A stretch of DNA of 59,938 nt, taken from a virus. Its lineage: Duplodnaviria > Caudoviricetes. Positions 5,001 to 32,546 of this stretch are shown here, piece by piece. Every line of letters begins with the position of its first letter. The stretch's first letter is position 1. The DNA is taken from the IMG/VR virus record IMGVR_UViG_3300044970_000300, positions 1 to 59,938 of that record; one strand, given 5' to 3'. The position numbers and the translations under genes are program-made. The notes below the pieces were generated by a model. That model was not told the DNA's origin and ran no database searches. It worked only from the letters and a program-made list of their open reading frames with translations.

Positions 5001-5342
5001 GGAGTTGAGGGCGGAACAGGAAACACTCAGGTATTTGGAAGTCTCACCGTAAATGGTTCAATCACAGAAAGCTCTTCTATCCGATACAAGAAGGACATAG
5101 TAGACATTGAGCATTCATCATCAAAGATTGAATTACTTCGTCCAGTACGATACAAGAAGATGAAAGACGAGTCTGAGGAGATTGGTCTTATAGCTGAAGA
5201 TGTAGCGGAGCTGTTCCCAGAGGTTGTTAAGTACGACAATGAGGGCCGCCCTGATGGAGTCAATTACTCTCGCCTAAGCGTAATTTTGCTGAAGGCTGTG
5301 CAAGAGTTAACAGAACGAGTAAACAAGTTAGAAAACAAGTAA
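2004..5342 (+). CDS. tail fibre 1 with C-terminal peptidase S74 intramolecular chaperone
   Basis: SPAFTGIPTAPT and GSGLDADLLDG fibre motifs; C-terminal SSIRYKKDI...IGLIAEDV..FPEVV plus coiled coil. Confidence 0.9.
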   Translation: MKFLSQINVNTEYTLPFVDGNNGQVLTTDGQGAVYWGNVSAGSTSLDGLTDVEITSPQAGQILNYSVPLGGTVPVWRNITSPYATIASPAFTGIPTAPTAPTGTDSTQIATTAFVKAQGYLSSASSINDLSDVTISTVTTGQILQWSGTQWVNATLSTVDYVSKVQHLVKCGVAVAKGQAVYVTSADGTNMIVGLASNASEATSSKVIGLAVSTGAINDQIFVVTEGLIAGLNTSTATAGDPVWLGTGGNLIFGLLNKPVAPAHLVYLGVVTRVQQNNGEIFVNVQNGFELNELHDVLINGVSTGQLLRRDSDGLWKNWSPNFLTSYTETDTLQTVTTRGATTNLAISANGVTSPNLTSTALMIINADSSGSLQPDQGSPANKILSFRWQANEYGYIDTDGKVTLNGFKTPTGTSSQFLKANGTVDSNTYLTTTAAAGTYTTYDYVDDEISSVNTYVANNFVPKTRTLTINGTSYDLSANRSWTITTTDSTKVSKAGESHDTVEPNNLGAGDGGFYTVKNGFGPSGGNDALIHIPYSNSLWAHQLAFDWALGNDQDMWFRTKNNGTWQGWRKVWHDGNFTDNSTNWNTAYNDRITAAAVSGTGTKTLTLTQGDGGTVTATWTDYDTDNDAQTISYSSGTNELSISNGNSITLDGLATEDYVLSQGFTTFQPWNSGTGSINYTAGNVGVGTALPTKKLHVVSGDNEGIFMQGSTNGGHWFDFKSANSNHWSMGAQPGLMGWYNRTDSTYKVVISDGGNVGINTTNPGAKLHVVGNTYIQSGVLFVDTIAGYATNLVSIAANTNFTVPSGIITVAKDLGTNDYANVGQHNMQLRIRKSSLDGGCAPRSLELGVLDNGTGIIQANHCGIGYNTLSLNPVAGSVLINGQTAWHAGNDGAGSGLDADLLDGQHGSYYASASSLGSYLPLSGGTMTGDLTLKYSTADSSDYNGLMFAPYSDAAGLNDYIIKAASDRGVFGRKSFGWHVHTESAFGVYSNGWEKLFGVEGGTGNTQVFGSLTVNGSITESSSIRYKKDIVDIEHSSSKIELLRPVRYKKMKDESEEIGLIAEDVAELFPEVVKYDNEGRPDGVNYSRLSVILLKAVQELTERVNKLENK

Positions 5343-5343
5343 T

Positions 5344-8300
5344 ATGGCAAATCTTTTAAGTACCACTGTAAATGGTCAGTTGAATACTGGAAACGTAATT
5401 GACCTTGGATATACGGTTAATGGTTCTATTGCAACCACCGCATTCCGTGGTATTAACTTTCATTCATTTGGCGACCTAAACTATTACATTGGTAAGCCAT
5501 CAGGAGCCTGGACTCAGCCATTGCATATCCACTTCTATACTGGCATTTGGATTCGTTCACATCATTCTTATGGTGGAACTAGATTTTACAACATTGCCAC
5601 TGGAAGTAATTTGATGTCTATTGGAGATGGTGCAGACAATATCAATGTTTATGCTAAGATAACTAGCAGTATTACTAGCGGAACTGTTTTATCTCACGGC
5701 TCAATGGATGATGCTATCGGGTGGAATAGCAGTTACGGTACTTACATTGGCTCTACGGTAGGAGGAACATCTTACTTGTACGCTAACGGAACACTTTATA
5801 CTGGCGGCGCCTACAGAACTCTTATCCACTCTGGTAACATCGGAAGTCAGTCTGTAAGTTACGCAACTACAGCTAACGTCGCTAATTTCTTCGGAGGATT
5901 TACAGCCTATGGCCTAGTAGAGGAAGCTCGTGGTGTTCACTCTGCGAGTGATTTTCCAAATGGAACTCTTGTTACCACAGACATTCAATCGAATGAGTGG
6001 GCTGGAGATTCATTTGTTATGGAGGTTTCAGGTAAGAGCTATGGTTCTGGAACTCCGTTCAAGCTTGCAATGGAGGGCTACTTATACGCTGATACGATAA
6101 TCAACGTATCTGCTATGTCATACGGTTCATACTTCCCTGCTCCAGTGAAAGTAATGAATCTCGATGGCACCCTTGCGTTCTGGTGGCCTCGTGGTTCGTA
6201 TTGGAACTCATTCCAAGTCCACGTTAGAGCCGCTGGTGGAGAATCTTGGAATCGTGTGACAGGCATAAGTGATTCCGTAGACCCACCATCAGCAACTAAA
6301 AAGATTTCTATTACTCCAGTACAAGTAATCCACACGAACAATATCGGCTCTCAGTCGGTAAGCTATGCAACGAGTGCTGGAGACGCTTCAACCCTTGGGG
6401 GTTTTGGTCGAGGAAATACAACTAACAAGGTTGCATACTTTGATGGCAGTAGAAACCTTTTTGTAAACAATCCAGAATCATACTCTGGTGAGGTTAGGCT
6501 TGGTGCGGCTTGGGGCCGTGGTGGTGTTTACGCATCTAGTACGTTGAGTCTGTCAACAAGCGGAACAGAAACTCATTTTGTATTTAACAATTCCGTTCCA
6601 ATCATTGCATACAGCAATGGACAAATAGACCTTGGTAGTTCAACCAACACTCCGATAAACATAACTGGAGGCGCTCACAAGTACATAACCATCAATCCTG
6701 GGAATGGATGGGAGGCTATGGTTCGTTATGTTGGCGGCTCTGGTTCTTCTTGGTACGTTGGAAAGAGAATGACATCTCAAGTTGTAGGAACTGAATCATT
6801 TCACTTCTATTCTGAAGCAGCTTCTCAGACAGTTGGCGGCATAGACACTAGTGGAAATATGATTGTCACTGGCTCAATGCGTGCTCCAATTTTTTACGAC
6901 TCTAATGATACTACATACTTCCTTGACCCAAATGGAAGTATATCTGGTATTTTCGCTGGAAGTGTAGGAATAAATAACACTTCACCCATTAACACTGCTT
7001 GGGGTAGTGCCTCCACAACAAAGCAATTGTCGATTGACGGAACTAACTATGCTGTAATAAACCTTTTAGGTGGCTCTAGAAGATTTTCTATGGGTGTTGG
7101 CGACGCACAGTTCTATATGTGTTATGACAACACGGCAGGCCGACACAACATTATTGTAAATAGTAGCGGTAGTGTTAGCATACCTGTTGATGTTAGGTCT
7201 CCAATCTTCTACGATTCTGCTGATACCAACTACTACGTAGACCCAAATAGCAACTCAAAACTTGTTAATCTCGGACTTGGTGGTGCGACTCCAGACCTTA
7301 GACTTAGCGTGTCTGGAGACATACATATGGATGGTTACATCTATCAAGGTGGTACTGCTGGTGTTGTAAATAGCTGGGGCTCTAGAACGCTTGTTAGTAG
7401 TGGCAACTATGTGTCAAACGCAAGGTCTTTTGCTTTCAACAATGTCGGTTATGGTTCGTCTTGGACGTTTGCTATTGCGTCCGATGGGGCAGTAACAACA
7501 AACAGACACATTGATGCAAACACCACTTGGACAAATAGTGCAACTACTCTCTTCCTTGGATGGTACGGTGGTAAGGTTGTAATTGGAAATAATAACAATG
7601 GCAATCACGATGCTGCGGCAGCACTTGGGGGTAATACTGTTATATCTACGAATCCACTGTATGCTCCAATTATTTACGACTTAAATGATACTGGATACTA
7701 CGGAAACTTTGCTGGTTTCTCTAGAATGTCAGAGGTTGGTACTACTAATCAATATGTATACAACTACGACAGTGTAGATTCTGGAAGAGCAGTTAACGAA
7801 TTTGGACACGTAGGAAAGTATGTTTCAACACAATCAGCATCTACGAACTACATCCCGTTCTCTTTTGAGAACAGATATGGAAACCACTCTTGGGGACACG
7901 TAGCACGTTTCCACATTAGCTCTGGAAGCGGAACTGACAGACCATCGATTCAGTTTTCTAGTGGATACAATAATACCAGATGGAGTGTTGGATACTGTAG
8001 TGGTACCGATGACAACTTTAGAATTACCCAAAATATGGGTATGCGACCAGATAACTCTGGAAACCACGATGAGTGGGGAACTGAGCGTTTTAGAATAAAT
8101 ACGGACGGTAGCATCTATATTTCTTCTTCTTTACAGGCGTATTCTTATCAGGGTCACTCTAACGTGGCTGGGACTGGTAATGCCTCATATCACCCATCTG
8201 GTATCTATTCAACTGGAACAAACTGGTTGTACGGAACTATGTATATGAATAACAATAGTATACGTGACGTACAAGAGATATACAATAATGGATGGTTTAG

Positions 8301-9534
8301 AACCGTTGGTCACCAAGGATTGTACAACCCAACAAATGATGCACACTTCTATCCAAACAACGCATCGTATGGTTCTTGGAGGATAGACGGAACAAGAAAC
8401 GGCTGGCACGGATTGCACTTTAATTCTGGCTCTACGTTAATGATGAACAGTGCGGAGACTGGAATTCACCGTGAGGGCTATGGCTGGCAGTTTAGATGGT
8501 ATAATGGTTCTATGTATGTTTCAAGAGGCACATATGGAGGCGGAACGGAGTATACAGTCATAGATAGTGGGACTATTGGTAGCCAATCGGTAAGTTATGC
8601 ATCATCCGCTGGCGGAGTGTCTTGGGGTAACGTAACAAGTAAACCATCAAGATGGCTAGGCGAAGCGAACCTAATCTATGATAACGCACCAGACACAGCG
8701 GTAGAAAGTGGATTTTGGCAGAGCTATTTGGGTTCTGGCAACCCAACTGGAACTTGGTTTAACTATATCAACGTAAGACACTCGAATACTGGAAACGTAC
8801 ACGGATACCAACTAGGTATGTCTTACTACGACAACAATCTATGGTTTAGAAGTTATCAGGGTAACGGAACATATCAGACTTGGTCTAGGGCACTAGGAAC
8901 AACCACTGACCCTTATCCATCTAATATGAATCAATACGTTCGTACTTCGGATGATGTAACATTTAATACTACAACTGCCCCAACAATCCTTGTAAACAAC
9001 CACTCAGATAACACGAAGGGTTACCGTATCCACAACACTAGCGGTTCTTCTGTTAGTGCGATGTTTACGAACTCATCCAATGCACTCGTTATTGCGGCAG
9101 GTGCATTTGACCAAATCAACCTCAACAAGAAGGTATACGTCAACGGAGTGGCGCTCGGTGTCAACGTAACGCCCTCATCAACCGCTGGACGTATTGACGC
9201 ATCCAACGACATCGTGGCCTACTCATCATCTGACGAGCGGTTGAAGCACAACATCACTCCGATTGAGAACGCCATCGATAAGGTGAAGTCTCTCACTGGT
9301 GTAGAGTTTGACTGGAAACCCGAGTACAAGCACGCACACGGATACGAAGGACACGACACTGGTATCATCGCACAGCAAGTACAAGAGGTTATCCCTAGCG
9401 CAGTAAGAACCAACGACACTGGATTCTTGGCTGTACGCTACGAGAAACTAATTGGTCTTCTGGTCGAAGGTATGAAGGAACAGCAGGCACAGATTGAAGA
9501 ACTCAAAGCGAAGCTAGATGGCCTTACAAAGTAG
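5344..9534 (+). CDS. tail fibre 2 with C-terminal peptidase S74 chaperone
   Basis: Gly/Ser/Asn-rich repeats; C-terminal SSDERLKHNI...GVEFDW...GIIAQQV plus coiled coil. Confidence 0.9.
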   Translation: MANLLSTTVNGQLNTGNVIDLGYTVNGSIATTAFRGINFHSFGDLNYYIGKPSGAWTQPLHIHFYTGIWIRSHHSYGGTRFYNIATGSNLMSIGDGADNINVYAKITSSITSGTVLSHGSMDDAIGWNSSYGTYIGSTVGGTSYLYANGTLYTGGAYRTLIHSGNIGSQSVSYATTANVANFFGGFTAYGLVEEARGVHSASDFPNGTLVTTDIQSNEWAGDSFVMEVSGKSYGSGTPFKLAMEGYLYADTIINVSAMSYGSYFPAPVKVMNLDGTLAFWWPRGSYWNSFQVHVRAAGGESWNRVTGISDSVDPPSATKKISITPVQVIHTNNIGSQSVSYATSAGDASTLGGFGRGNTTNKVAYFDGSRNLFVNNPESYSGEVRLGAAWGRGGVYASSTLSLSTSGTETHFVFNNSVPIIAYSNGQIDLGSSTNTPINITGGAHKYITINPGNGWEAMVRYVGGSGSSWYVGKRMTSQVVGTESFHFYSEAASQTVGGIDTSGNMIVTGSMRAPIFYDSNDTTYFLDPNGSISGIFAGSVGINNTSPINTAWGSASTTKQLSIDGTNYAVINLLGGSRRFSMGVGDAQFYMCYDNTAGRHNIIVNSSGSVSIPVDVRSPIFYDSADTNYYVDPNSNSKLVNLGLGGATPDLRLSVSGDIHMDGYIYQGGTAGVVNSWGSRTLVSSGNYVSNARSFAFNNVGYGSSWTFAIASDGAVTTNRHIDANTTWTNSATTLFLGWYGGKVVIGNNNNGNHDAAAALGGNTVISTNPLYAPIIYDLNDTGYYGNFAGFSRMSEVGTTNQYVYNYDSVDSGRAVNEFGHVGKYVSTQSASTNYIPFSFENRYGNHSWGHVARFHISSGSGTDRPSIQFSSGYNNTRWSVGYCSGTDDNFRITQNMGMRPDNSGNHDEWGTERFRINTDGSIYISSSLQAYSYQGHSNVAGTGNASYHPSGIYSTGTNWLYGTMYMNNNSIRDVQEIYNNGWFRTVGHQGLYNPTNDAHFYPNNASYGSWRIDGTRNGWHGLHFNSGSTLMMNSAETGIHREGYGWQFRWYNGSMYVSRGTYGGGTEYTVIDSGTIGSQSVSYASSAGGVSWGNVTSKPSRWLGEANLIYDNAPDTAVESGFWQSYLGSGNPTGTWFNYINVRHSNTGNVHGYQLGMSYYDNNLWFRSYQGNGTYQTWSRALGTTTDPYPSNMNQYVRTSDDVTFNTTTAPTILVNNHSDNTKGYRIHNTSGSSVSAMFTNSSNALVIAAGAFDQINLNKKVYVNGVALGVNVTPSSTAGRIDASNDIVAYSSSDERLKHNITPIENAIDKVKSLTGVEFDWKPEYKHAHGYEGHDTGIIAQQVQEVIPSAVRTNDTGFLAVRYEKLIGLLVEGMKEQQAQIEELKAKLDGLTK

Positions 9535-18045: not shown

Positions 18046-21000
18046 ATGCCAATAGATAAGCTAACCCCTCGTTACCTAAACAAGGACGACGACTTCTTGG
18101 TTGTGAAGTCAGTCGAAATGATTGACGCTATAAACGTGCACGTTGGTGACAACGACGAGGGCAACGCTGACGTATTGAAGAACAGCCGAGGCAATACTCA
18201 GATTGTATTTGCGAGCGGTTCAGAGTTGCCGTCAGGCACGAACACCGTCGTAGGCTCTGGGCTTAACGTAGAGAAGAGTGAGGTTCTGTTTGCGGTACAC
18301 AATTCATCAGGCAACCATAGCATCTATCACTACTCGACTCAGACCAATCAGTTGAGGTTGGTGTATAGGGATTCGGTGCTTGGATTTACCGCTCTGAGCT
18401 TCGTTAAGTTTGACTTCATCGTTAACGAAAACGGAGACACGCTCGCGTACTTCACGGACGGAGTAACCGACCCAAAGAAGATTAACGTAAGCAAGGCGTT
18501 GCTTGGTACTGGATACCCATACAAAGCTGCTGGTGGATACAACTACACAGACGAGGAGAAATTGGTATGTATCACTGTGGCTAAACAACCACCGCTTGAC
18601 CCTCCTACCCTCGCGTTTACCAATGTGGCCGACCAGGACAACTTCGTCTATGACGAATACTTCCAGTTCGCATATCAGTATGTATACGAGGACGGCGAAG
18701 TATCGGCACTATCTCCATACAGTGAGATTGGCGTGAATGTATATCAGTTACTCGATGGATTCATCACTGACTCCGCCAAGGACCTATTCAACGCAATCAA
18801 CGTAACCGTAAAGCACAGCAGAGCTGACGCGTCTAAGATTAGACTCCTCGCTAAGTCTGCCGATACTCTTGGATTCTTCGTTGCTGGTGAAATTAACAAC
18901 AGCAGAACATCTACCACGGAGGTAATTACGTTCACCAATAGTAAACTTCGTTCCTACATTTCGTCTCTTGAGCAGAATAAGATGTACGACAACGTCCCTC
19001 AGAAGGCGAACACTCAGGCAATATCAGGCAACCGCTTGCTCTATGGTGGATACACAGAGTTCTACGACAACGTAAACACTAACGTGTCAATATCTGAAAT
19101 AAACACCGACAGCGGCAAGTCAGTATACCTTAGCGTAAATCCAACAACTGCGTCGACTAAATACTATAGTCCAGCTAGCAGTATAGCTACGTCTAAGTTC
19201 AACTTCGTGGTTGGTGATACAATCAATAGTACGTCATACGATAGTCAGATAATCCTAGACTTTCAGGTTTACTCTAGCGAGGTGAATGTACTTCCAGGCG
19301 GCTCCGCTAACATTCAGTTGACCTCTACTGAGACAACTAACTACCTGAGAGTTGGAAAACTGGAGATAGATATTTCCAAGCAGTTCACGCTTCCAGCGTA
19401 TGACGACCTATTGAGTGGTTCTCCAGATGTGTATGCTAGATTTGTAAATAACATTTCTGGCAACTACAATGCAACTGTAACTGTCGGTCAAGCTCTTGCT
19501 CAGCCTTCAGGAATAGTTCATAAACTTAAGGGAACCGCAGTTGTGAATATATCACTTGATGCGATTGACTATGGGAGTACTCAGATTTCATTCTTAGTTA
19601 AGATTGTATCTATATCACTCGAAACCGCTAGCGGATACTACAACAGTAACGCTAAGCCCATAGACTCTTCTAAGTTTATCTCATTCACTCTGAATCCGAC
19701 GTTGCTTAATACATCTTATTCTACAGAATTTAAGCAATTCGTTACATATAAGAATTACAACTCAAGACAGTATTACGTCTCGTCAGGTCGTTCATTCAAG
19801 GCTGGACAGGAGCACAAGTTCGGAATTGTGTATTACGATGGATTTAATCGAAGTGGAGCAGTAAACGAGATTGGAGCCAAGGAGGTATCTTGGTACTCAG
19901 AAAGAGAGGTCGATAGCAAGGGACCAGTTTCATTCCAATTCAGAGTCAAACACAACCCGCCGAGCTGGGCTAAGAAGTGGCAGCTACTATACTCACCGTT
20001 TGTATCGTATAACTATGCACTACAATACAGTGTCGGTGAGGCTTTCTGTACTTCATTGTCAGAGAAGGATAATGTCATATACGTGTCTATGGGCACGCTT
20101 GATGGAAAGTCATACTCATACATCGATTCCAAGAGTCCTAAGGTTGAGTATGTATTTGCCGAGGGAGACAAATTACGCATAGTCAAGTATGAGTCAGGAG
20201 GCGAAAATGTCTACGTTGGATATGAGTTCGATATATTAGGATATGAGTATTACGACCTAACGAATACTCCAGTAAACGAAACTATAGGTACTCAACCGAG
20301 TGATGATAGAAGGACTGGATGGTTCTTGAAATTGGCAGAAAATCCTAACGCTCCTGGGTTTACTAAAGCTGACGTTGTAACTAGAATTGAAGGCGGGATT
20401 GTTATTGATAGCGCAGACTTCTGGAATAAGCAGACTGTAGTTGAGATTTACAGACCTATCAAGCAGACCGACGTAAACATCTATAGGGAGATATCTGAAG
20501 TGTTTGATGTCGTGAATGCATCTGGCACCTACAGACACAAGGGTGACAGAGACTACTCGTACACTTGGACATCTAGCACATCAAACATCACCGTATCTGA
20601 TGGTTTTGCAACGACGGCACTCAACATCAAGAACGGTGACGCATTGGTGATAAGCACCACCATCCTCGGAGTGCTCACCTCATACGAGGTTAGAGTGTCA
20701 TCGGTTAAGATGTCTGGGACGAACAGAATCTTCTCAGTTGCTGACGCGAACGTAGTTGGTCAGATTGGAATCTCAGTTCCGCCGAACGGTGGGTACTCAC
20801 TGGCCAATATCACTAACCTGACCGATGCTGTGGTTGAGACGTTCAATGGTGACGCTTACTATCGTCTTCGTCAGATGAACGTGATAACTAATTACCTAAC
20901 AACTCCTCAGGTTACTACTCAGTATGAGGATATGTTCGTCGAGGATAACTCAATCACTGACTTTGCCGACTCTAAGTTTACCAGTATTGGTAGGCCCAAC

Positions 21001-22317
21001 GCACCAGCACCAACCGCTGGTCAGGTATACAGGAAGGCGACAATCACCTACTCTGAGCCATACGCTCTTGACTCTCAGGTGTTAACACTATCATCATTCA
21101 ATCTCGGCCAGGCCAACTTCGTGGACCTATCGCCAGTTTATGGTGGCATACAGTACATCGTGGACGGTGGAGACTCCATCACGATTCTACAGGAGCGTAA
21201 GTGTTCAGTAGCACCAATCAACAGAAACATCATCGAGTACATCGGTGGTGGTGGCGGTGTTACTGTATCGACCAACTTCATCGGCTCGCAGAGCTTCTAC
21301 GCTGGCGACTACGGTGTCGGTAAGCACCCTGAGTCTGTGGTTAACCATTTCGGTCGCGTGTACTTCGCTGACGTAAATAACGGAAAGGTTATACGCCTCG
21401 GGCCAGACGGAATCACTCCAGTAAGTGAGGAGGGCGTTGATTCGTACATCCAAGACAAGATGAACGGTGCCATAGCACTCGGCGACACGAACTTCAAGTT
21501 TGTCGCTGTTATGGACCCAGAGCGTAGCGAATACATCATCTCGTTCCAGAAGCGTGCTGGTAGCGGTTCATACAATGACGACACCATCGCTTACGACGTG
21601 AAGGCTGGCGCTTGGAGAACTAGATACTCATTCATCCCTGAGTCTGGATGCTACGTAGACAACGTAATGATTACGTTCAAGAACGGTGGCGCTTGGGCTC
21701 ACAAGGATGACTCAACCAGAAATACATTCTACGGCGCGTTCACTGCTAGCTCAATCAAGTTGGTGTCAGCACAGAACAACTCTATGGTTAAGATATTCGA
21801 GGCCGTTAGCGTCGAGGGCAACGCACCGTGGAGCTTCTCAGTTGAAACGAGGGACCAATCAACCGTCACCATCTCATCTATGGACAAGCGTGAGGGTATG
21901 TACTACGCGTCAATCCCCACGGCCACTAGCTCGACCTCAAACATCTTCCCACTCGGTGTTGTGACCAACTCAGACCCGATAGCTGGAGGATTCATCACGA
22001 GCGTAGGCAACTACATCTCAGCCATTCCATTCCCGCTCAATGGGCAGGTTATGGTGGTGTCTGGCGGAGCGCTTGTAGATACGAACCTCACGGTAAGTGG
22101 AGTCGTCAACAAAACATCAATCTCAACCGTTGGAACGACCGTCGTTACCGTGGGTCAGACGATTGCTGTAAAGTCGAACTCTACCGTAGATGGAGACAAG
22201 ATTCGCGGTCCATACGCCGTGATTACACTCACTAACAGCCTAACCACTCCAGTGGAGGCTTACGCATTCAACACGGTGTTCAACCGTTCGATGCTTCACA
22301 ATGAATTAGTTAACTAA
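18046..22317 (+). CDS. tail stabilisation/muzzle-type protein
   Basis: LNKDDD start, NVPQKA..Q...GNRL.YG.Y, GIVYYD.FNR, YGVGKHPESV and YSFIPE motifs of crAss-like/podovirus tail proteins. Confidence 0.75.
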   Translation: MPIDKLTPRYLNKDDDFLVVKSVEMIDAINVHVGDNDEGNADVLKNSRGNTQIVFASGSELPSGTNTVVGSGLNVEKSEVLFAVHNSSGNHSIYHYSTQTNQLRLVYRDSVLGFTALSFVKFDFIVNENGDTLAYFTDGVTDPKKINVSKALLGTGYPYKAAGGYNYTDEEKLVCITVAKQPPLDPPTLAFTNVADQDNFVYDEYFQFAYQYVYEDGEVSALSPYSEIGVNVYQLLDGFITDSAKDLFNAINVTVKHSRADASKIRLLAKSADTLGFFVAGEINNSRTSTTEVITFTNSKLRSYISSLEQNKMYDNVPQKANTQAISGNRLLYGGYTEFYDNVNTNVSISEINTDSGKSVYLSVNPTTASTKYYSPASSIATSKFNFVVGDTINSTSYDSQIILDFQVYSSEVNVLPGGSANIQLTSTETTNYLRVGKLEIDISKQFTLPAYDDLLSGSPDVYARFVNNISGNYNATVTVGQALAQPSGIVHKLKGTAVVNISLDAIDYGSTQISFLVKIVSISLETASGYYNSNAKPIDSSKFISFTLNPTLLNTSYSTEFKQFVTYKNYNSRQYYVSSGRSFKAGQEHKFGIVYYDGFNRSGAVNEIGAKEVSWYSEREVDSKGPVSFQFRVKHNPPSWAKKWQLLYSPFVSYNYALQYSVGEAFCTSLSEKDNVIYVSMGTLDGKSYSYIDSKSPKVEYVFAEGDKLRIVKYESGGENVYVGYEFDILGYEYYDLTNTPVNETIGTQPSDDRRTGWFLKLAENPNAPGFTKADVVTRIEGGIVIDSADFWNKQTVVEIYRPIKQTDVNIYREISEVFDVVNASGTYRHKGDRDYSYTWTSSTSNITVSDGFATTALNIKNGDALVISTTILGVLTSYEVRVSSVKMSGTNRIFSVADANVVGQIGISVPPNGGYSLANITNLTDAVVETFNGDAYYRLRQMNVITNYLTTPQVTTQYEDMFVEDNSITDFADSKFTSIGRPNAPAPTAGQVYRKATITYSEPYALDSQVLTLSSFNLGQANFVDLSPVYGGIQYIVDGGDSITILQERKCSVAPINRNIIEYIGGGGGVTVSTNFIGSQSFYAGDYGVGKHPESVVNHFGRVYFADVNNGKVIRLGPDGITPVSEEGVDSYIQDKMNGAIALGDTNFKFVAVMDPERSEYIISFQKRAGSGSYNDDTIAYDVKAGAWRTRYSFIPESGCYVDNVMITFKNGGAWAHKDDSTRNTFYGAFTASSIKLVSAQNNSMVKIFEAVSVEGNAPWSFSVETRDQSTVTISSMDKREGMYYASIPTATSSTSNIFPLGVVTNSDPIAGGFITSVGNYISAIPFPLNGQVMVVSGGALVDTNLTVSGVVNKTSISTVGTTVVTVGQTIAVKSNSTVDGDKIRGPYAVITLTNSLTTPVEAYAFNTVFNRSMLHNELVN

Positions 22318-24486: not shown

Positions 24487-24524
24487 TAGTTTAGTATATT
24501 TGCATATCGCAGATATACTATGCT

Positions 24525-27500
24525 ATGAACGAAGAACTTAAGGCAATCCTAGAGAAGGCGTACGCCAGCGGAAAGTCATTAGACCAGATATCTAAGGCTA
24601 TGAAGGATAACGGCTTCTCTAACGAGGACGTTGCGTTCGCATCAAGCTTTTACGAGAGTAAAAAAAAAAGACCGACCGATGGGGCATCACGTTCCACTTC
24701 GGCTCAGGAGCCTACTTCTTCGGAGTTACCCGTCTCTAAGAGCTCTATGCCTAAGCCTGACCAGTGGGAGAAAGACTTCCAGCAGGCTCGTATGCAGGCA
24801 ATGGAGACTGGGAAACCCGTTGATTTATTTGCGACACCAACAGGTAAACTCTTATCTGAGGGTATAAAGAAAGACAGCGCCCAGCGTGAGCGCGAGGAAA
24901 TCAGCACCGAGCTGGCATCTAAGATTTCTGGTATTAAGACGGCCGAAGACCTTGAGCGTGTTCGTCCTGAGATTGAGAAGACCTACGTAAAGTACAAGGA
25001 GTTTGACCTTGACAATGCAGCACCTGAGTCCATCTTCAATCAGGATGGTTCGTTCAACGTAGCAGCCACATCGTCGCTCGATTCCGACATCAAGTCATCT
25101 ATGGAGCGTTTCACGGCGGAGCAGAAGCGTTTAGCAGAGAATAGCACGTTCGTCTCTAGAGGTCTTGACGCACTGAGTGCTGGTGTTAATGGATTCATCG
25201 ATATGGCCCTTAAGACGGCCACTCCACCTATGACGGCGGCTACGCTCCAGGCGACTGGTACGACGTTCGGTGAACAAGCCAAGAAGGACCTAAAGAACGT
25301 GTCTCTGGCTAACTATGCCGAGAAGTTCAATATGGGTTACACGCCAGAACAGATTGAGAAGGGTGCGCTCAGTATGGCTATGCAGGGAGATTTCGGTCTA
25401 CTAGGTGTAGATATGCTAGACCAAACCATCAATCTAGCGGTCGGTGTTGCGGCTGGTCCCGCTGGCCTCGTGGCTCTAGGTACTACCGCGGCAGGTAGCG
25501 CGTGGACTGAGGTTATGGATGACAACAGATACAATATGGGGGAGAAGATGCTCTACGCCGTAGGTTCTGGTCTCGCCGAGTACGCAACTGAGAAAATTTT
25601 CGCCTCTGACCTTAAGGCCGTTAGAGGGTTGTTTGGTAGTGCAGAGGATGTAGCTAAGATGTCCAGGAAGGATTTCGGAGACCTATTGTTCAGCAAGCTC
25701 CCAGCACTAGCCCGCCAACCGCTTGAGGAAGGTATGGAAGAGGCCATAGTAGCCACCACTCAGGAGACGTTGAAGGCTGTACTTGCAGGTGAGAAGGTTG
25801 ACTATATGAACATCGCCGAGTCTGCGTTTGTGGGTGCGGCTATGGGTGGTTCTGTAGGTGTAGTTACGAGCGGTCCATCCGCCCTGTTGCAGACTCCAAT
25901 CTTCAAGGATAGAATCGAAATCAGAAACAAAATCTCTGAGATTAACAACCTCATCAACGACCCATCAGTGTCTGAGGACGAGAAGGAGCTTCTCAAGACT
26001 AGACTGAACGAATACGTATCTAAGGAGCGCAAGATGCGTGATGACGCAAAGAACTATTACTCTGCATTCTCTGAGGATGACCTACAACAAACCATCAAGC
26101 TGAATCAGACCATCTCTGATGGGATGAAAAAGTACAACACGCTAACTAGCACGGAGGCTAAGGCTCAGGTCGTAACCGACATCAAGGGAGCTATGGCTGA
26201 GAAAGCTAAAATCGAACAGAAGTATGATAGCAAAGCGCAACAACAAGTACCAGGTACTGTCGTCGAAGGGCAAGCCGTTGAGCAAGCCCAACCTGTCGAA
26301 GGAGCAGGCACTCAAGAGACTCAGGCAGGTGGAGTTCTTCAAGCACCTCAAGAAGTAACTAATGCCGCAGAGAGTCTAGGGTTTAAAGTCAAGAGATTCA
26401 AACTAAATCAAAACACAGTTAGTCAAGCGGTTGACGCTATGAACAGTTTCTTGTCTAACGTATCTGATGAAGTTATATCATCTTATGAAACGACTAGAGA
26501 AAATGTTGGTCTTGGAATCCAAAGTATTCAAAATGTTATTGACTCTTTTGCTAAGTCAAACATTGATGTAAACTTCGTTGCCCACACCACTCCTGAAAGT
26601 ATGCAGGAGCAAACTGGACAGTTGGAGCGCGGCGTACACATATCTTACAAGGACGGCAAGCCTAGTGAGATTCACGTATACATTCCATCTCTGCTATCAA
26701 ACACTGCCTATCACGAGGCTATCCACGAGATAATCCCAAGAACGATGGGTGCTGATGGCGTAAATAGCCTTGCTGATAAACTCAAAAGAGCCGTCAAGAG
26801 AGACCCGCAACTTCAGGCGCGTATGGATAAGTTCCTTGGAGGATATGATGTCACCGAGAACACAAATGACGAATTCCTTACTGAATTGGCTTCCTTAGTT
26901 TCTGCTGGGGATATTGACATAAACATCAAGAAAAGTCTCGCCACTAAGTTCGTTGAAGCGGTTAAGAGCGTATTAGGTATGGCTGGAATTAAAACTCAGC
27001 CTACTACAGCTCAACTGTTTAATGGATTAAATCAAATGGCCAAAGAGCTTGGAGCTGGAATTCAGCTTACTGGAGAGCTTGGCCAAATGGACTTCGAAGC
27101 AGCTAGAGCTCAAAAAATCTCTAAGCCTTCCGAAGATAGAGTTATGGCAGCAGCAAATGCTATTGCAAACAACGTAAACAATAAGTATCCAGAGGCTGTA
27201 GAACAAGAAGTAACTAAGGCCGAAGAGATTGTAGATAAGAGAGGCAAAAAGTATGTTAGCTATGAGGTTAAGCAAGTACCTTACCGCCTTGAGTCTGGTG
27301 CAATGGAATTCTTTGGTGAATCAGCAACTGATGTACTAGTAGATAGGATAGTAAAAGACGTAAATGAAAACCTAAGCAACAAAGAGGTTAGCAATGGAAT
27401 AGGATGGTACTCAAAAATGAGAGATTGGTTCCAGAAGAAATTCGGAGCTAACATCGAGTTATTCGGCCAACTGCTTGCTGCAACTTCGGCAAGAACTCCT

Positions 27501-30500
27501 GTAGATATAAACTTCAGGCAGTCAGTAGATGCTATGCGTCAATTCTCATTGGGTAAGTACGACGATATGCTTAATAGATACCACGATTACGTTAGTGGCA
27601 TCGAATCTATGAGCGATGAGGCTGCGCTTAAAGCGTCTGGATTCAAAAAGAAGTCTCACACTGAGGCAGACGTAATTGATGCTCGTAGAAAGCTCATCAA
27701 CAAGTTTACAGAAGTCCCACTTCAGGGTAACGGAAAGAAGTTTAATGCTAACAGTGCTAAAGTTTTACAGGCTCTTTACGGTAACTGGCTTAATCAGACT
27801 CAAGGACCTAAGACTAAGAACTTTGCTGGCAATTTAACTGGACGTTCTACTGAAGCCACGATTGACGTATGGGCAGCTAGATACCTTAGAAGAATAACTT
27901 ACCAAGGCAACGTCGAGCGCTGGAGAATACATCCTTCTCAGGAAGGCTCAGTCGAGCATACTGTCAATACTAAAGGAGAACTAGGGGGAGATTACTTCTT
28001 CGCAGAATCGGTTATGAGAAAGGCCGCCGATAAACTTGGGTGGCAGGCCGATGACCTTCAAGCTTTCCTTTGGTTCTTGGAGAAAGACGTATGGGATAAA
28101 AACGAATGGACTGGAGTTGTAGGTAAAAAGAAATCATCTTTTGAGGAGGAAGCCGCTAAACTTAAAACTGAGCGCTATCAAGCTGGAGTAACTACATTTA
28201 AGGACTTTGATACTTTCGATAAGAAAGAATATGATAAAGCAAAAAAGGAGCTTTTAGACAGCATTAGAAGCATCAGAGGCGTCGTTGTGGCCAGAGTAAA
28301 TGACTCTGAAGGTGAGTTTTACTCCCCTAGTGGAGATGTGTACACCGAGCCATCATTTGACGTTGAGTTCTCTGTAGAGGAAGGAACTGATGTGTCTTCT
28401 GTTGAGGCTAAGGTTGTAGAGATTGGTAAGCGCTATAACCAAGAAGCGGTTTTGTTTAGCAGAATTAGTGACATCAAAACATCCAAAACAGCACCGATTA
28501 TAGAGATTGGCCTGAAGAGACCAGTTAAAGAATCCAAGACGCTGGACGAGGTCAAGAAAGCTCTTGCTGCGATGGACGTTAAAGGTTTCACTATATCCAG
28601 AGACAGCAGGGGTAATGTGCTAGGTATTCGTACTCAGTTTATCAGTGAGTTCGAAGGAAAGCCCATCTCTGAAGGAGAGGTTATATTCGAAAAAGCAGAG
28701 AGCGAAATAAAGTCAAAGTTTGGCAAAAACGAAGATATTTCGTACATTGAGCGTAACTTTGTTGAGACAAACGTATTTTTTACAGCAAATGAAAAAGAAG
28801 CAGAACTACAGAGTGACACTCAAGCCGCCAGCAGTGGGACTGTCCCAGGAGGACTTGAACCTGCTAGCGCAGTGGTTAGAAAACAGGCAGGTCTTGGGAA
28901 GCCAGGAGAAAACGGAAATCGCCTCGATGCCAGAAGAGAAGGAGTAAAAACATCCTTTGTAAACACCTATAGAACTGCTGATTTCCTTCACAGGGCTATA
29001 AGAGACATCGCATACGGTTCAGGTAATGAATGGGGTTTCTTTGCCCCAAGGGGAACAGTAGTAACCGAAGTAAGGGGCCGCAAGGAACGTGGCGACAGGG
29101 ACGAAAGTAGATATTTCGAAGCTGAACTTAAGTTCGTTAACAGAATCAACAAGACCAGTTCTACGTTTAAGTTTATGTTCCGAATTGCTGACCATACGGT
29201 TCCAGCAGATGAGGCTAGAGCGGAGACTTACGTTGATGATGGTATAGCTACATTTAATAACGGATTTGATATAGCGTTAAACATCTGGAGCCCCAACACG
29301 TATAACGCGGCAGTTCTTCATCTTCAGAAGATGTTCAGAGTTAAGTTGCCTAAGATTGACTCTCAACTGCTTATATCTAACAGTAGAATGTTCCGCCAAC
29401 AGCGTGGAATTATGGACATACTGCGTAGACATTTGATGAGTGGAGCTCAGATGATAGATGGCAAATATGTTCCTGCAATTAGCGAAGAAGACTTTGTTGA
29501 GTTAGCAAATAAAATGGGCATCAGTGATATCCTTGCTAAGACTTTGTACGCAGACATCCTTGACCGAGCTAATGAGATGGAGCAGGCTGACTTCAGTATG
29601 GCGAATGTTAGAAGCCAGTATGAAGAGAGAATCAAGGAGCAGCCTTGGTACAAAGTAGTATTCAGCTTGAACAAAATCAGAACTGCGTTATTCGATAGGC
29701 AGTCAAACATCAAGAAGGCTATACTAAATTCTAGAGTATCAGGGGCATACGATTACTTAGTAAACAAATCTGGAGCTAGCGCTCGAGCTAAATACTTTGT
29801 AAACAAGGCTCATAGAGCTATATACTCTGGCCTTAACAAGTCAGACATCAACAACCTTGATGACATTATCTTCCTTCGCCGCGTAATCGAAATCGACAAA
29901 TCTTTTGACGACAGAAGAGCGGCTATTGTTGACCAGCTTGCAGAGGCGAACATTGAGCTAGAATACGCTCAGTACCGCGTAGACAATATGGCCAGCAACA
30001 TTAGTGTAGATAAGAAAAACAAGCTAAGAGAAGAGCTTTCAAAAGCTAGCGCTGAGGTTGATAGACTAACAAAACTGCTTGATGAGACTCAGCGGCCTAT
30101 GCACACTATGGACCGTAAGTCTGGAGTTACCACAAATAAGGAGATAGCCGAATTAGAGCTTCAAAAGATGTCTAAGACGATTAGCAACTTCGACCTTTTA
30201 AACTCTAGAGCTGATGCATACTTTAATGAGTTTAAAAACATTCTAAACGACCTGTTCAAGAATGGCTTAATCACTAAAGAGCTCTACGATAAGATTAAAG
30301 ACTTTGACTACTCTCCAAGGGTCTTCTTAAATCACGCCTTTGACTTCGGTGATAATGACGTGGCTGTACGTGACTATGGACTTACTGGTGACCAAGTTAA
30401 GAGAATCCGCGAAGGCAGTAACGATGATATCATTTTAGATTCTCAGTTTCTGCTATCGGCTTATGCAGCATCAGCTTCATCTAGAATCCTTAAGAACAGA

Positions 30501-32546
30501 GCCAACAAAGCGTTATTTGAGGCTGCCCTAGACCCATCTAACAAAGAGTGGATTAAACCACAGGACCCAGACGGTAGCGCATCGGTTGGTTTTGAGACTG
30601 TATATTTCTACGAGAACGGTGAGCAGGTTAAGTTCCAGCTTCGCACTGACCTGAAGCGTGAGTGGGACGGAGCTAATAGACTGTTTGACTTGGGTCCCGT
30701 AGGCAATAAGTGGATTAGTTACTTGTCTGGTTCTGCACTGCTGAAACTGCTTGCAACCAGAGCGAACCCGTTGTTCGTCGTAAGGAACTTCCCTCGCGAC
30801 TTTGGGCACATCTTGTTTTTCACTGACATTTACGACAATCAGAATATCTACTTCGCATCATACAATCTGATGAGAGACTTCTTTAAGGGTAGACGCTCAT
30901 TCAAGAATGATGACCAGGACTTCCAGGAGTATATGGAAATGGGTGGAGGTATGGACTTCTTATCAACTGATGGTCGCCCTGGTAGCCTTAAGCTAGATAA
31001 GAGTAGTATTGATAAGTTCGTAGATAGGATGTCTAAAATCGGCGAGGTATCCGAGGTGGCATTCCGAGTTGCGGTGTACAAGCGCACTAAGGACGACGCT
31101 GTAGCCGAATACGAGAAGAAGTACGGAAAGAAGCCTACAGGTGAAGACCTAGAACTAATCAAGGCTAAGGCAGTAACTAAGGCTCGCTCAATTATCGACT
31201 TCGCACAAGGAGGTAATCTAACCAAAGGTCTTGAGATTGTTAAGCCTTACATTAACTCAGCATTCCAAGGCTTCAGAGTGTCTGCGTCTTATATCAAGGA
31301 AAACCCGAAGAAGTTCGCTAGCAAGTTCCTTCAGGCGCAGGCTGGTATGCTTGCCTTGGCTATGGCTAACGCACTCATCGGTGGTGACGACTATGAGGAC
31401 ATCCCAGACGAGGTTAAGCTCAAGTACTTCATCATATTTACTGGACTGACGTACCTAGATGAGGATGGCGTAGAGCGTAGAGCTTACATTCGAATCGCTA
31501 AGCCTCAGCAGATGGTTCCGTTCTTTGCGCTGATGGATATTGCGAATGGTTATACGCTTTCTTCAATTCTAGGAAAAGAATACCGTCCGTCTGATGACCT
31601 GATTGAGTACGCAACCAAGGGTGTATTTAATGCCTTGCCTACTGGAGCGTCTCTGTCCGAGATTACATCATCTATACCGTTACTCAGCGCATTAAACACG
31701 TACCAGAGTAACTACGATTCATTCCGCAAACGTGCGATTTCATTGGGATTCGGCGGTAGAGCTCCACTGCCTATGGACGAAGGACTAAATGACCCTAACG
31801 TAGAGCGTTTCTATCAGGTCATCGGTAAGGTATTCGGTGAGACTCAGGAACTAGTTACGGGCGAAAAGAGTGGCCTGTCTCCAGCACGTTTAAAGGTGTC
31901 AGTCGAGAAGATAATCACTAGTCCTAGCTCGTCAATAGTTGTTGGAGCCGCCTATGGACTGCTTGATATCATCACATCGGTTGTGCCGCTCGATAATGAG
32001 CTATCATCACAGGAGCGTAAGGCATCTGCCGTGAAGATTGTAGAGGCTCTATCTAAGAACGGAATTACAGTAAGTAAGGCCATATGGGGTGAGACTAATC
32101 CTGACTGGAAGATTTACAACAAAAAGGAGGAGCTTGAAAGAATAGACCAGGAGTCCGTTAGCAAGCGTATGAGAATCAATGGTGCCGCTAAGGAGCTGGG
32201 ACGTGAATACTTCAACGCCAAGACTGAGGAGGAGAAACAAGCCATTCTTGAAGAAGCTAAGAAGAAATCATCTGAGATAGCAGAGGAGAACAAGATTGAT
32301 GGTATGTACTTCAGGGACACGTTCCTTACCGCAGCTAAGAAGCGTGTGGCTACCCAGAATACGAATGAAATTATCTACTCTGTCGATGATGAATCAAGAG
32401 CCAAAAAGTTCTATAATTTCTACGGAGATATGACCGAAGAGGAACTGCTCGAGGTTAGACGACAGATTTACAACGAGTCTGGATACAAACTGAGCGCTAA
32501 GTTCAAGTACGAGTACGACAGATTACGCAAAGAAAAAATGAAGTAA
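24525..32546 (+). CDS. giant polyvalent virion/ejection protein (zincin HExxH, HhH-like and LPD38-like regions)
   Basis: 2673 aa; YHEAIHE motif; C-terminal PYINSAFQG..IPDEVK..YFII..YIRIAKP resembles LPD38; promoter TATATTTG at 24495-24502. Confidence 0.7.
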   Translation: MNEELKAILEKAYASGKSLDQISKAMKDNGFSNEDVAFASSFYESKKKRPTDGASRSTSAQEPTSSELPVSKSSMPKPDQWEKDFQQARMQAMETGKPVDLFATPTGKLLSEGIKKDSAQREREEISTELASKISGIKTAEDLERVRPEIEKTYVKYKEFDLDNAAPESIFNQDGSFNVAATSSLDSDIKSSMERFTAEQKRLAENSTFVSRGLDALSAGVNGFIDMALKTATPPMTAATLQATGTTFGEQAKKDLKNVSLANYAEKFNMGYTPEQIEKGALSMAMQGDFGLLGVDMLDQTINLAVGVAAGPAGLVALGTTAAGSAWTEVMDDNRYNMGEKMLYAVGSGLAEYATEKIFASDLKAVRGLFGSAEDVAKMSRKDFGDLLFSKLPALARQPLEEGMEEAIVATTQETLKAVLAGEKVDYMNIAESAFVGAAMGGSVGVVTSGPSALLQTPIFKDRIEIRNKISEINNLINDPSVSEDEKELLKTRLNEYVSKERKMRDDAKNYYSAFSEDDLQQTIKLNQTISDGMKKYNTLTSTEAKAQVVTDIKGAMAEKAKIEQKYDSKAQQQVPGTVVEGQAVEQAQPVEGAGTQETQAGGVLQAPQEVTNAAESLGFKVKRFKLNQNTVSQAVDAMNSFLSNVSDEVISSYETTRENVGLGIQSIQNVIDSFAKSNIDVNFVAHTTPESMQEQTGQLERGVHISYKDGKPSEIHVYIPSLLSNTAYHEAIHEIIPRTMGADGVNSLADKLKRAVKRDPQLQARMDKFLGGYDVTENTNDEFLTELASLVSAGDIDINIKKSLATKFVEAVKSVLGMAGIKTQPTTAQLFNGLNQMAKELGAGIQLTGELGQMDFEAARAQKISKPSEDRVMAAANAIANNVNNKYPEAVEQEVTKAEEIVDKRGKKYVSYEVKQVPYRLESGAMEFFGESATDVLVDRIVKDVNENLSNKEVSNGIGWYSKMRDWFQKKFGANIELFGQLLAATSARTPVDINFRQSVDAMRQFSLGKYDDMLNRYHDYVSGIESMSDEAALKASGFKKKSHTEADVIDARRKLINKFTEVPLQGNGKKFNANSAKVLQALYGNWLNQTQGPKTKNFAGNLTGRSTEATIDVWAARYLRRITYQGNVERWRIHPSQEGSVEHTVNTKGELGGDYFFAESVMRKAADKLGWQADDLQAFLWFLEKDVWDKNEWTGVVGKKKSSFEEEAAKLKTERYQAGVTTFKDFDTFDKKEYDKAKKELLDSIRSIRGVVVARVNDSEGEFYSPSGDVYTEPSFDVEFSVEEGTDVSSVEAKVVEIGKRYNQEAVLFSRISDIKTSKTAPIIEIGLKRPVKESKTLDEVKKALAAMDVKGFTISRDSRGNVLGIRTQFISEFEGKPISEGEVIFEKAESEIKSKFGKNEDISYIERNFVETNVFFTANEKEAELQSDTQAASSGTVPGGLEPASAVVRKQAGLGKPGENGNRLDARREGVKTSFVNTYRTADFLHRAIRDIAYGSGNEWGFFAPRGTVVTEVRGRKERGDRDESRYFEAELKFVNRINKTSSTFKFMFRIADHTVPADEARAETYVDDGIATFNNGFDIALNIWSPNTYNAAVLHLQKMFRVKLPKIDSQLLISNSRMFRQQRGIMDILRRHLMSGAQMIDGKYVPAISEEDFVELANKMGISDILAKTLYADILDRANEMEQADFSMANVRSQYEERIKEQPWYKVVFSLNKIRTALFDRQSNIKKAILNSRVSGAYDYLVNKSGASARAKYFVNKAHRAIYSGLNKSDINNLDDIIFLRRVIEIDKSFDDRRAAIVDQLAEANIELEYAQYRVDNMASNISVDKKNKLREELSKASAEVDRLTKLLDETQRPMHTMDRKSGVTTNKEIAELELQKMSKTISNFDLLNSRADAYFNEFKNILNDLFKNGLITKELYDKIKDFDYSPRVFLNHAFDFGDNDVAVRDYGLTGDQVKRIREGSNDDIILDSQFLLSAYAASASSRILKNRANKALFEAALDPSNKEWIKPQDPDGSASVGFETVYFYENGEQVKFQLRTDLKREWDGANRLFDLGPVGNKWISYLSGSALLKLLATRANPLFVVRNFPRDFGHILFFTDIYDNQNIYFASYNLMRDFFKGRRSFKNDDQDFQEYMEMGGGMDFLSTDGRPGSLKLDKSSIDKFVDRMSKIGEVSEVAFRVAVYKRTKDDAVAEYEKKYGKKPTGEDLELIKAKAVTKARSIIDFAQGGNLTKGLEIVKPYINSAFQGFRVSASYIKENPKKFASKFLQAQAGMLALAMANALIGGDDYEDIPDEVKLKYFIIFTGLTYLDEDGVERRAYIRIAKPQQMVPFFALMDIANGYTLSSILGKEYRPSDDLIEYATKGVFNALPTGASLSEITSSIPLLSALNTYQSNYDSFRKRAISLGFGGRAPLPMDEGLNDPNVERFYQVIGKVFGETQELVTGEKSGLSPARLKVSVEKIITSPSSSIVVGAAYGLLDIITSVVPLDNELSSQERKASAVKIVEALSKNGITVSKAIWGETNPDWKIYNKKEELERIDQESVSKRMRINGAAKELGREYFNAKTEEEKQAILEEAKKKSSEIAEENKIDGMYFRDTFLTAAKKRVATQNTNEIIYSVDDESRAKKFYNFYGDMTEEELLEVRRQIYNESGYKLSAKFKYEYDRLRKEKMK
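26224..26358 (+). CDS. nested +1-frame small basic protein (44 aa)
   Basis: MIAKRNNKYQVLSSKGKPLSKPNLSKEQALKRLRQVEFFKHLKK*; phage-like AAG codons; the main frame here is a low-complexity linker. Confidence 0.6.
   Translation: MIAKRNNKYQVLSSKGKPLSKPNLSKEQALKRLRQVEFFKHLKK
28789..28947 (+). CDS. nested +1-frame small protein (52 aa)
   Basis: MKKKQNYRVTLKPPAVGLSQEDLNLLAQWLENRQ...; TAACTTTG at 28754-28761 upstream; the main frame is a linker. Confidence 0.45.
   Translation: MKKKQNYRVTLKPPAVGLSQEDLNLLAQWLENRQVLGSQEKTEIASMPEEKE

Follow-up and report, generated by a model that had tools for sequence, protein, structure and literature searches.

The Caudoviricetes genome IMGVR_UViG_3300044970_000300 was analysed over the whole virus record of 59,938 bases (referred to here as the window), the completeness of which is estimated at 98%. 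On its plus strand, a small gene at 26224..26358 (ATG start, 44 codons, TAA stop) lies in the +1 frame of a 2673-codon open reading frame (ORF) at 24525..32546, the largest gene of the phage, which remains open through it. The reading we favour, with a probability of about 0.82 for its shown and inferred parts together and leaving function aside, is that this is a captured, separately translated small gene residing in an inter-domain linker of a polyvalent-type giant gene. A preliminary description, made from the letters alone, had proposed a gene nested out of frame within a giant ejection-protein gene. The ORF and its peptide were recovered letter for letter and the +1 frame was confirmed, while the host gene is better described as encoding a giant polyvalent-type multi-domain protein, for which a role in ejection is only putative.

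The nested gene and the frame under selection

Since 21 ORFs of at least 30 amino acids overlap 25000-27500, a 44-codon ORF is unremarkable in this region and proves nothing by itself; it is homology that places the nested ORF above chance. In a word-indexed search of 5.8 billion proteins, the best matches of the nested peptide reached E-values of 2.6e-11 to 1e-5 with 91-100% of the query covered, and 225 of the 227 small proteins scored fell at E<=0.01. These 225 matches span 24-77 amino acids, nearly all of them 43-47, and none carries a Pfam domain. The profile search that had been proposed for the peptide recovered a large family: profile A2, an alignment of 27 members with the window ORF as its first row, matched 2778 representatives of 50%-identity clusters at E<=0.001, including 721 at E<=1e-10. 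The family consensus is MIxKxxxGYQVLSSKGK...AxKRLRQVEFFKH, and the invariant residues of A2 (K4, V11, S13, G16, A29, R32, L33, Q35, E37, F39 and K40) are all present in the window peptide, which starts at the M-I of the family and ends four residues past FKH. The ending RLRQ(V/I)E(F/Y)FKH, which the preliminary description had associated with small phage proteins, is real and is found in the homologs. Judged by sequence, the nested ORF is a member of a widespread, unnamed family of basic proteins of about 44 amino acids. Its own product is very basic, with a net charge of about +11 (counted from the peptide), and contains neither a cysteine nor a hydrophobic N-terminal leader.

A profile scan of IMG/VR confirmed 447 of 532 candidate stretches, of which the best 80 were examined. 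Of these 80 loci, 61 have the ORF nested inside a giant ORF, always in the same relative frame, a proportion that describes the nearest relatives of the window and not the whole family, given that the loci were found via the peptide itself. The giant frames are open for 1150-2710 codons, and the giant frame is always that of the small ORF plus 2. Counted by sequence, there are 48 distinct nested copies (from 60 nested loci among 79, plus the window, with the partial match L085 left out). The frame is intact in relatives and stand-alone copies are plentiful, the reverse of the two findings that the preliminary description had named as telling against a gene.

In 25 of 49 nested loci, the small gene is directly preceded by the helical N-terminal domain that precedes it in the window (profile A3), and the upstream context differs in the other 24. 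Ten loci lacking A3 were scanned against Pfam, and three of these have named domains: the nested gene follows Kinase-PolyVal and InPase domains in L072, lies between Kinase-PolyVal plus InPase and RadC in L107, and precedes a GNAT domain in L060. From these flanks, the hosts are therefore taken to be of the polyvalent type, with the nested gene located in inter-domain linkers. The idea that the small protein is a partner of the domain encoded upstream is weakened, as only about half of the loci have the A3-type domain. Many of the giant ORFs have no detectable similarity to that of the window. A separate scan with a profile of the giant N-terminal domain (7 sequences) found one further relative with the nested gene, L170. 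Two copies of a giant polyvalent ORF (L087 and L107, with InPase, Kinase-PolyVal and RadC domains), 98.5% identical over 8 kb and both with the nested gene, occur in one Prolixibacteraceae metagenome-assembled genome, a 7.6-Mb Bacteroidota chromosome record. The two loci, possibly prophages or integrative elements, give a hint of the host range.

Judged from the pattern of substitutions, purifying selection acts on the nested frame. Compared with a relative of 87% identity, there are 17 differences in the 135 nucleotides (nt), of which 10 fall at position 3 of the nested codons (position 1 of the giant's) and 11 are synonymous in the nested frame. Across five close relatives, the ratio of nonsynonymous to synonymous substitution rates (dN/dS) in the nested frame is 0.05-0.14 where computable, with a pooled ratio of the corresponding polymorphisms (pN/pS) of 0.12. 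Read in the giant's frame, this DNA has an apparent dN/dS of 1.5-11 and a pooled pN/pS of 2.59, and the 300 codons upstream give 0.05-0.12. The comparison of both frames that had been suggested at the outset thus favours the nested one. Among 44 distinct loci without insertions or deletions, diversity at nested positions 1, 2 and 3 is 0.253, 0.183 and 0.433. In the giant's frame, the 150-codon flanks have values of 0.62, 0.54 and 0.70 on one side and 0.65, 0.58 and 0.70 on the other, and they hardly align. A sliding scan over about 1940 aligned codons found the overlap to be the only region flagged in both comparisons run. Within a rapidly diverging part of the giant gene, the small gene stands out as an island of conservation.

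Codon usage also fits the nested frame. In the other genes of the phage, AAG, CAG and GAG account for 78%, 66% and 70% of the Lys, Gln and Glu codons, and the nested ORF uses them without exception (10/10, 3/3 and 2/2). The giant's frame in the overlap has CAA in 9 of 10 cases, AAA in its one case and GAA in 3 of 5, so that the preferred AAG codons noted earlier for the nested frame and the atypical CAA and GAA codons of the main frame are both borne out by the counts. Relative codon adaptiveness is +0.178 in the nested frame and -0.125 in the giant's frame over the same DNA, for which the reference is 45-codon windows along the giant gene (mean 0.044, standard deviation 0.081).

In the giant's frame, the overlap at 26223..26360 (plus strand; 46 codons, YDSK...QEVT) reads YDSKAQQQVPGTVVEGQAVEQAQPVEGAGTQETQAGGVLQAPQEVT, a linker rich in Gln, Glu, Ala, Gly, Pro and Val that joins the helical N-terminal domain to the next domain; the third base of its Tyr codon falls within the nested ATG. 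In an AlphaFold2 (AF2) model of giant residues 431-760, the segment of about 570-620, which is the overlap, has a predicted local distance difference test score (pLDDT) below 50 and no secondary structure, and the giant protein is predicted to read the small gene as a disordered spacer. The giant protein of the window matches DUF7178 (E 6.4e-7; 29.9 bits, above the Pfam cut-off of 27) and LPD38 (E 5.9e-4; 20.4 bits, below the cut-off of 27). Combined with the strong scores for Kinase-PolyVal, InPase, RadC and GNAT domains in relatives hosting the same nested gene, these matches point to a polyvalent-type multi-domain protein. No nested locus has a stop in the giant's frame across the small gene. 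The equivalent frame, by contrast, is interrupted by stops in 17 of the 19 free-standing viral copies and in 58 of 78 copies from cellular genomes, leaving it open in 2 and 20, respectively. Both frames therefore appear to be needed in the nested loci.

Distribution and predicted fold of the small-protein family

Free-standing copies, the small basic phage proteins to which the preliminary description had likened the peptide, make up 19 of the best 80 viral loci. In five loci (L041, L042, L048, L069 and L070), the free copy lies just upstream of the terminase large-subunit gene, directly adjacent to it in four and separated from it by one short ORF in L069. Aeromonas phage 1233 has a free-standing copy (tblastn E 3e-7) in an unannotated gap. 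The possibility that this phage retains a state in which the small gene was free between two halves of the giant was rejected, as its upstream 812-amino-acid protein matches the giant's N-terminal domain only with a BLASTP E of 0.88 and an hhalign probability of 0.75%. At the DNA level, a blastn search in its 'distant' setting found no relatives among isolated phages.

On contigs of cellular genomes, at least 567 matching stretches were found, with 567 of 600 candidates confirmed. The cellular matches listed are mostly from Acidobacteriota, along with Micrarchaeota, Patescibacteria/Saccharibacteria, Binatia, Verrucomicrobia and others. Of 101 genomes searched in the order to which one Acidobacteriota genome belongs, 68, including four unpublished ones, carry the family, mostly as a single copy. 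The neighbours in Acidobacteriota vary, with 298 neighbouring ORFs falling into 208 clusters. The most common of these clusters are tandem universal-stress proteins (USP; 12 of 80 loci), CBS pairs (4), Crp/Fnr (4), BON (3) and Hsp20 (3). In two Micrarchaeota contigs (L091 and L092), the free gene begins just where a ribonucleotide reductase gene containing a TSCPD domain ends.

The module is further found in frame within longer proteins, where its partner domains include Acb1/2H phosphoesterase, DNA/RNA ligase, GNAT, NUDIX, DUF72 with lytic transglycosylase, and histidine phosphatase. Two long module-bearing proteins, P0188 and P0242, were considered as portal proteins, an assignment that was dropped as neither has a PHROG match at E<=1e-5. 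In gp265 of Cronobacter phage Banach (207 amino acids), the C-terminal 40 or so residues belong to the same family (36.6 bits with the profile; tblastn E 0.04). Unlike the nested gene, however, this module stands in frame behind an anti-CBASS Acb1 domain (PF23474, E 3.6e-49). The same Acb1-module extension is seen at L002:1006-1629, which is Banach gp265, and in about 270 similar T4-like records (Pseudotevenvirus), annotated variously as hypothetical protein, RNA ligase or anti-CBASS protein. A search of the literature on C-terminal extensions of Acb1 found nothing on the nested arrangement.

The AF2 model of the peptide has a mean pLDDT of 90.3, with strands at residues 2-5 and 8-12, bridges at 18 and 24, and a helix at 26-43. 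The predicted structure is thus a beta-hairpin packed against an amphipathic helix. High among the fold matches of this model are the small beta-beta-alpha proteins 3bid (NMB1088), 6q2z (HVO_2922) and 2k7i (ATU0232), at Foldseek ranks 1 and 6 (E >1) and with VIA Z-scores of 4.4, 3.8 and 3.2. We take these to be UPF0339/YegP-type (DUF1508) proteins. Unlike them in sequence, the peptide has no match to the UPF0339/YegP family profile (Pfam, E up to 10), and the scores are no better than those typical of common small arrangements. VIA Z-scores of 3.5-4.4 were given by 6q2z, yaiA, pieces of PH domains, the N-terminal domain of lambda Int and a GCC-box domain. The fold matches are too weak to name a fold or a function. 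In the ESM Atlas, only unnamed clusters of 293, 55 and 123 members were found, no functionally characterised family member emerged from the searches, and a full-text literature search with the family motif strings, with supplements outside its reach, returned nothing.

Expression, alternative explanations and possible function

A probable translation-initiation region of the nested gene lies at 26194..26223 (plus strand) and is A-rich, G-poor, predicted to be unstructured and devoid of a Shine-Dalgarno sequence. In 47 distinct nested loci, on which all statistics of the leader and start are based, positions -20 to -1 contain 53% A and 13% G, compared to 31% A and 25% G in the surrounding gene. 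The mean folding energy from -30 to +20 is -2.2 kcal/mol, compared to -8.4 elsewhere in the gene, and the start region is less structured than the mean of its own gene in all 47. A peak of A at position -13 is shared by the nested starts (0.77) and the window's own gene starts (0.69), whereas other ATGs in the +1 frame have only 0.34. The start codon is ATG in nearly all loci, with GTG in L060 and L064; among the best 80 viral loci, 5 have GTG. In these respects, the nested start looks like those of the phage's ordinary genes. Leaders that are rich in A and unstructured act as start signals in Bacteroidota, and the nested gene would likewise use a Shine-Dalgarno-independent signal, as would the other genes of this apparently Bacteroidota-infecting phage.

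An internal promoter is unsupported, as a TAnnTTTG motif is found within 200 nt upstream of the nested start in only 1 of the 47 loci. Internal initiation is therefore the likeliest route, by which the small protein would be made from the conserved ATG on the mRNA of the giant gene. The nearest promoter-like motif upstream is TATATTTG at 24495..24502 (plus strand), which is of the Bacteroidota -7 type and lies 23 nt before the giant ATG. From its position, the giant and nested products probably come from one late mRNA.

Several observations weigh against the favoured reading, in addition to the way in which the nested loci were found. The distant giant homologs L174-L178 (21-31% identity) have no small ORF in the DNA examined. 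Synonymous divergence (dS) in the overlap is 0.12-1.09, far below that of the flanks (about 1.9-2.7, with one pair saturated), which is predicted by dual coding and equally by recent exchange of the module between phages. The peptide has no significant match in Pfam (the best, TMF_DNA_bd at E 0.042, is sub-threshold, and no other family appears even at E up to 10), in PHROGs (best phrog_3684, E 0.34) or in NCBIfam, which gave nothing. Searches of the PDB gave a best E of 0.44 by sequence and no Foldseek match at E<=0.001, and the best fold match, a dimethylformamidase chain in the wide VIA comparison (Z 5.0), is weak. RNA-library contigs from freshwater or river runs X16, X17 and X19 cover parts of 26100-26491, and those of run X15 cover 25268-25528 only, upstream of the nested ORF; these contigs fit transcription, but they give no start, strand or level, gaps in their coverage carry no information, and DNA carry-over is possible. 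Finally, the module occurs in frame within 536 longer proteins (112-2000 amino acids), and one protein from a metagenome contig, P0183 (395 amino acids), consists of an L017-type N-terminal domain fused in frame to the module and ends at the module's stop. P0183 is either a frameshift variant or the product of a sequencing error in the opening codons of the nested gene.

These last two observations would fit the main alternative, in which a programmed +1 ribosomal frameshift just before the module, or transcriptional slippage, yields a protein of N-terminal domain plus module that ends at the module's stop, similar to other frameshift products of phages, with the ATG being incidental. The A-rich sequence upstream is also compatible with such an event, as runs of A can be slippery. 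Nevertheless, this explanation is improbable. A stop in the module's frame lies 1-40 codons upstream of the start (median 5), and in 22 of the 47 loci it lies only 1-5 codons before it, leaving next to no room for a shift site. In addition, the upstream sequences have no heptamer in common, the start codon (ATG or GTG) is conserved precisely where the free-standing proteins of the family begin, and the leader shares the -13 peak and the lack of structure with the ordinary starts of the phage.

The module might instead be a relic, namely a formerly in-frame domain of the giant that was shifted out of frame and is now an untranslated remnant, for which the in-frame copies in other large proteins provide a precedent. 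This is very unlikely, as the ORF is intact from start to stop in 48 distinct loci even though the flanks have diverged almost beyond alignment, with a dN/dS near 0.1 and third positions being the most variable. A similarly low probability applies to conservation at the level of DNA or RNA, in which the stretch would be a recombination hot spot for polyvalent modules, or a structured or regulatory RNA, and the +1 frame a by-product. The location of the element at module boundaries with differing neighbouring domains, and its low dS relative to the flanks, would agree with this. However, the three-base periodicity of variation tracks the nested frame, thousands of proteins match the peptide, some of them encoded by free-standing genes of cellular genomes, and structure around the start is weaker, rather than stronger, than elsewhere in the gene. 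Just as implausible is that the giant ORF represents two genes with the small gene between them, joined by a frame that is open by chance: in L087 the giant's frame is interrupted shortly after the small gene, but the near-identical sister copy L107 is open for more than 2705 codons, and openness across the small gene in 61 of 61 nested loci differs sharply from that at the free-standing copies.

The favoured reading of a captured, separately translated gene includes a proposed origin: the small gene would have been inserted into, or captured by, a flexible linker, rather than arising from scratch by overprinting. Capture would tie the inheritance and late expression of the small gene to those of the giant gene, while the giant gene would merely stay open across it.

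As for function, the near-identity of the motif across hosts and phyla suggests either a target common to all cells or a tight structural constraint on the mini-fold. Speculatively, and with the odds against it, the product could have nucleic acid or some other component shared by all cells as its binding target, and could act together with polyvalent proteins. A role as a nucleic-acid- or ribosome-binding accessory factor is a guess that is more apt to be wrong than right. A broader and doubtful proposal is that linkers in the genes of giant, injected polyvalent proteins are a general hiding place for captured genes, of which the present one would be the case sampled best, and that the module is a nucleic-acid- or ribosome-binding factor of the dormancy type, deployed free, fused in cis to polyvalent proteins or to an anti-defence enzyme such as Acb1, or nested. 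In Acidobacteriota, the identifiable neighbours met most often, at a minority of the loci, are the USP, CBS, BON, Hsp20 and Crp/Fnr stress genes. If the proposal is true, insertion in the alternate frame would make the module hard to delete without breaking the giant gene, and would give it the giant's late expression.

Other features of the window bear on its host and gene content. Seven copies of TATATTTG (at 56, 9928, 12152, 12878 on the minus strand, 16472, 24495 and 59416) each lie no more than about 35 nt upstream of an ORF start. The wider TAnnTTTG class is not enriched, with 31 found and 31.4 expected. Shine-Dalgarno sequences were not seen before the genes of the phage, and the pattern is that of Bacteroidota promoters with short or no leaders. 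Together with a crAss muzzle C-terminal domain in the gene that the giant gene comes after (ORF 18046-22317), this pattern points to a Bacteroidota host, probably a freshwater one. Two adjacent ORFs, 2004-5342 (1112 amino acids) and 5344-9534 (1396 amino acids), both end in a Peptidase_S74 intramolecular-chaperone domain, as in tail fibres or spikes. A candidate second nested gene lies at 28789-28947 (plus strand; 52 codons, starting MKKKQNYRV), in the giant's +1 frame and in a low-complexity linker. In the relative L010, the equivalent ATG is preceded by a stop. Of the 28 differences from L010, 17 are at third codon positions of the candidate, and amino-acid identity is 77% in its frame vs 65% in the giant's. 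This candidate is known from only two relatives, and no homolog was found among isolated phages or called proteins of 28-91 amino acids.

Comparison with known systems

The embedded spanin genes, lambda Rz1 inside Rz and T7 18.7 inside 18.5, are a known arrangement close in form. As in the Rz1 type, a complete small gene, with a start and stop of its own, is entirely contained in a larger phage gene and occupies its +1 frame; Rz1 and its host gene are both translated. Products of the Rz1 type are lipoproteins that carry a signal peptide and a lipobox cysteine and that act as partners of the protein encoded by their host gene. The nested peptide, in contrast, has no cysteine or hydrophobic leader, its family is found free in cellular genomes, and its host is a multi-enzyme giant. 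Its identity as an embedded o-spanin was therefore rejected on the lack of a cysteine and a signal peptide, and on the nature of the host as a 2673-codon multi-domain protein. In phiX174, gene E inside D and gene B inside A are thought to have arisen from scratch in an older gene. The present case would likewise yield two proteins from one stretch of DNA in different frames, but here the inner gene is the older and widespread one, and the outer frame is poorly constrained.

The host gene itself resembles the polyvalent proteins of phages and conjugative elements that Iyer et al. are said to have described in 2017. Similar to polyvalent proteins with LPD38, Kinase-PolyVal and InPase domains, the relatives of the host gene, and probably the host gene itself, encode giant series of unrelated enzyme domains with linkers between them, and polyvalent-type proteins also carry the 44-amino-acid module in frame. 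No description of nested out-of-frame genes in polyvalent or crAss-like contexts was found in the literature searched, which did not extend to supplements.

Standard gene callers drop genes nested in larger ORFs, so that a conserved protein goes unrecorded in many phage genomes; even the free-standing counterpart in Aeromonas phage 1233 is unannotated. The family spans phages of enterobacteria, of Aeromonas and apparently of Bacteroidota, as well as cellular Acidobacteriota, Micrarchaeota and Patescibacteria.

An engineered counterpart is the synthetic-biology method of 'overlapping, alternate-frame insertion' (OAFI), in which both genes are functional and the fate of the inner gene is tied to that of the outer (bioRxiv 10.1101/2024.11.07.622342). 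Unlike OAFI, the arrangement described here is natural and is conserved in at least 48 distinct phage loci, with an origin by insertion that we infer. Embedded +1-frame phage genes are already known, and this case differs in having the older gene inside and the weakly constrained frame outside. A natural, long-lived older gene in the alternate frame of a linker would thus reverse the usual course of overprinting and parallel the engineering idea.

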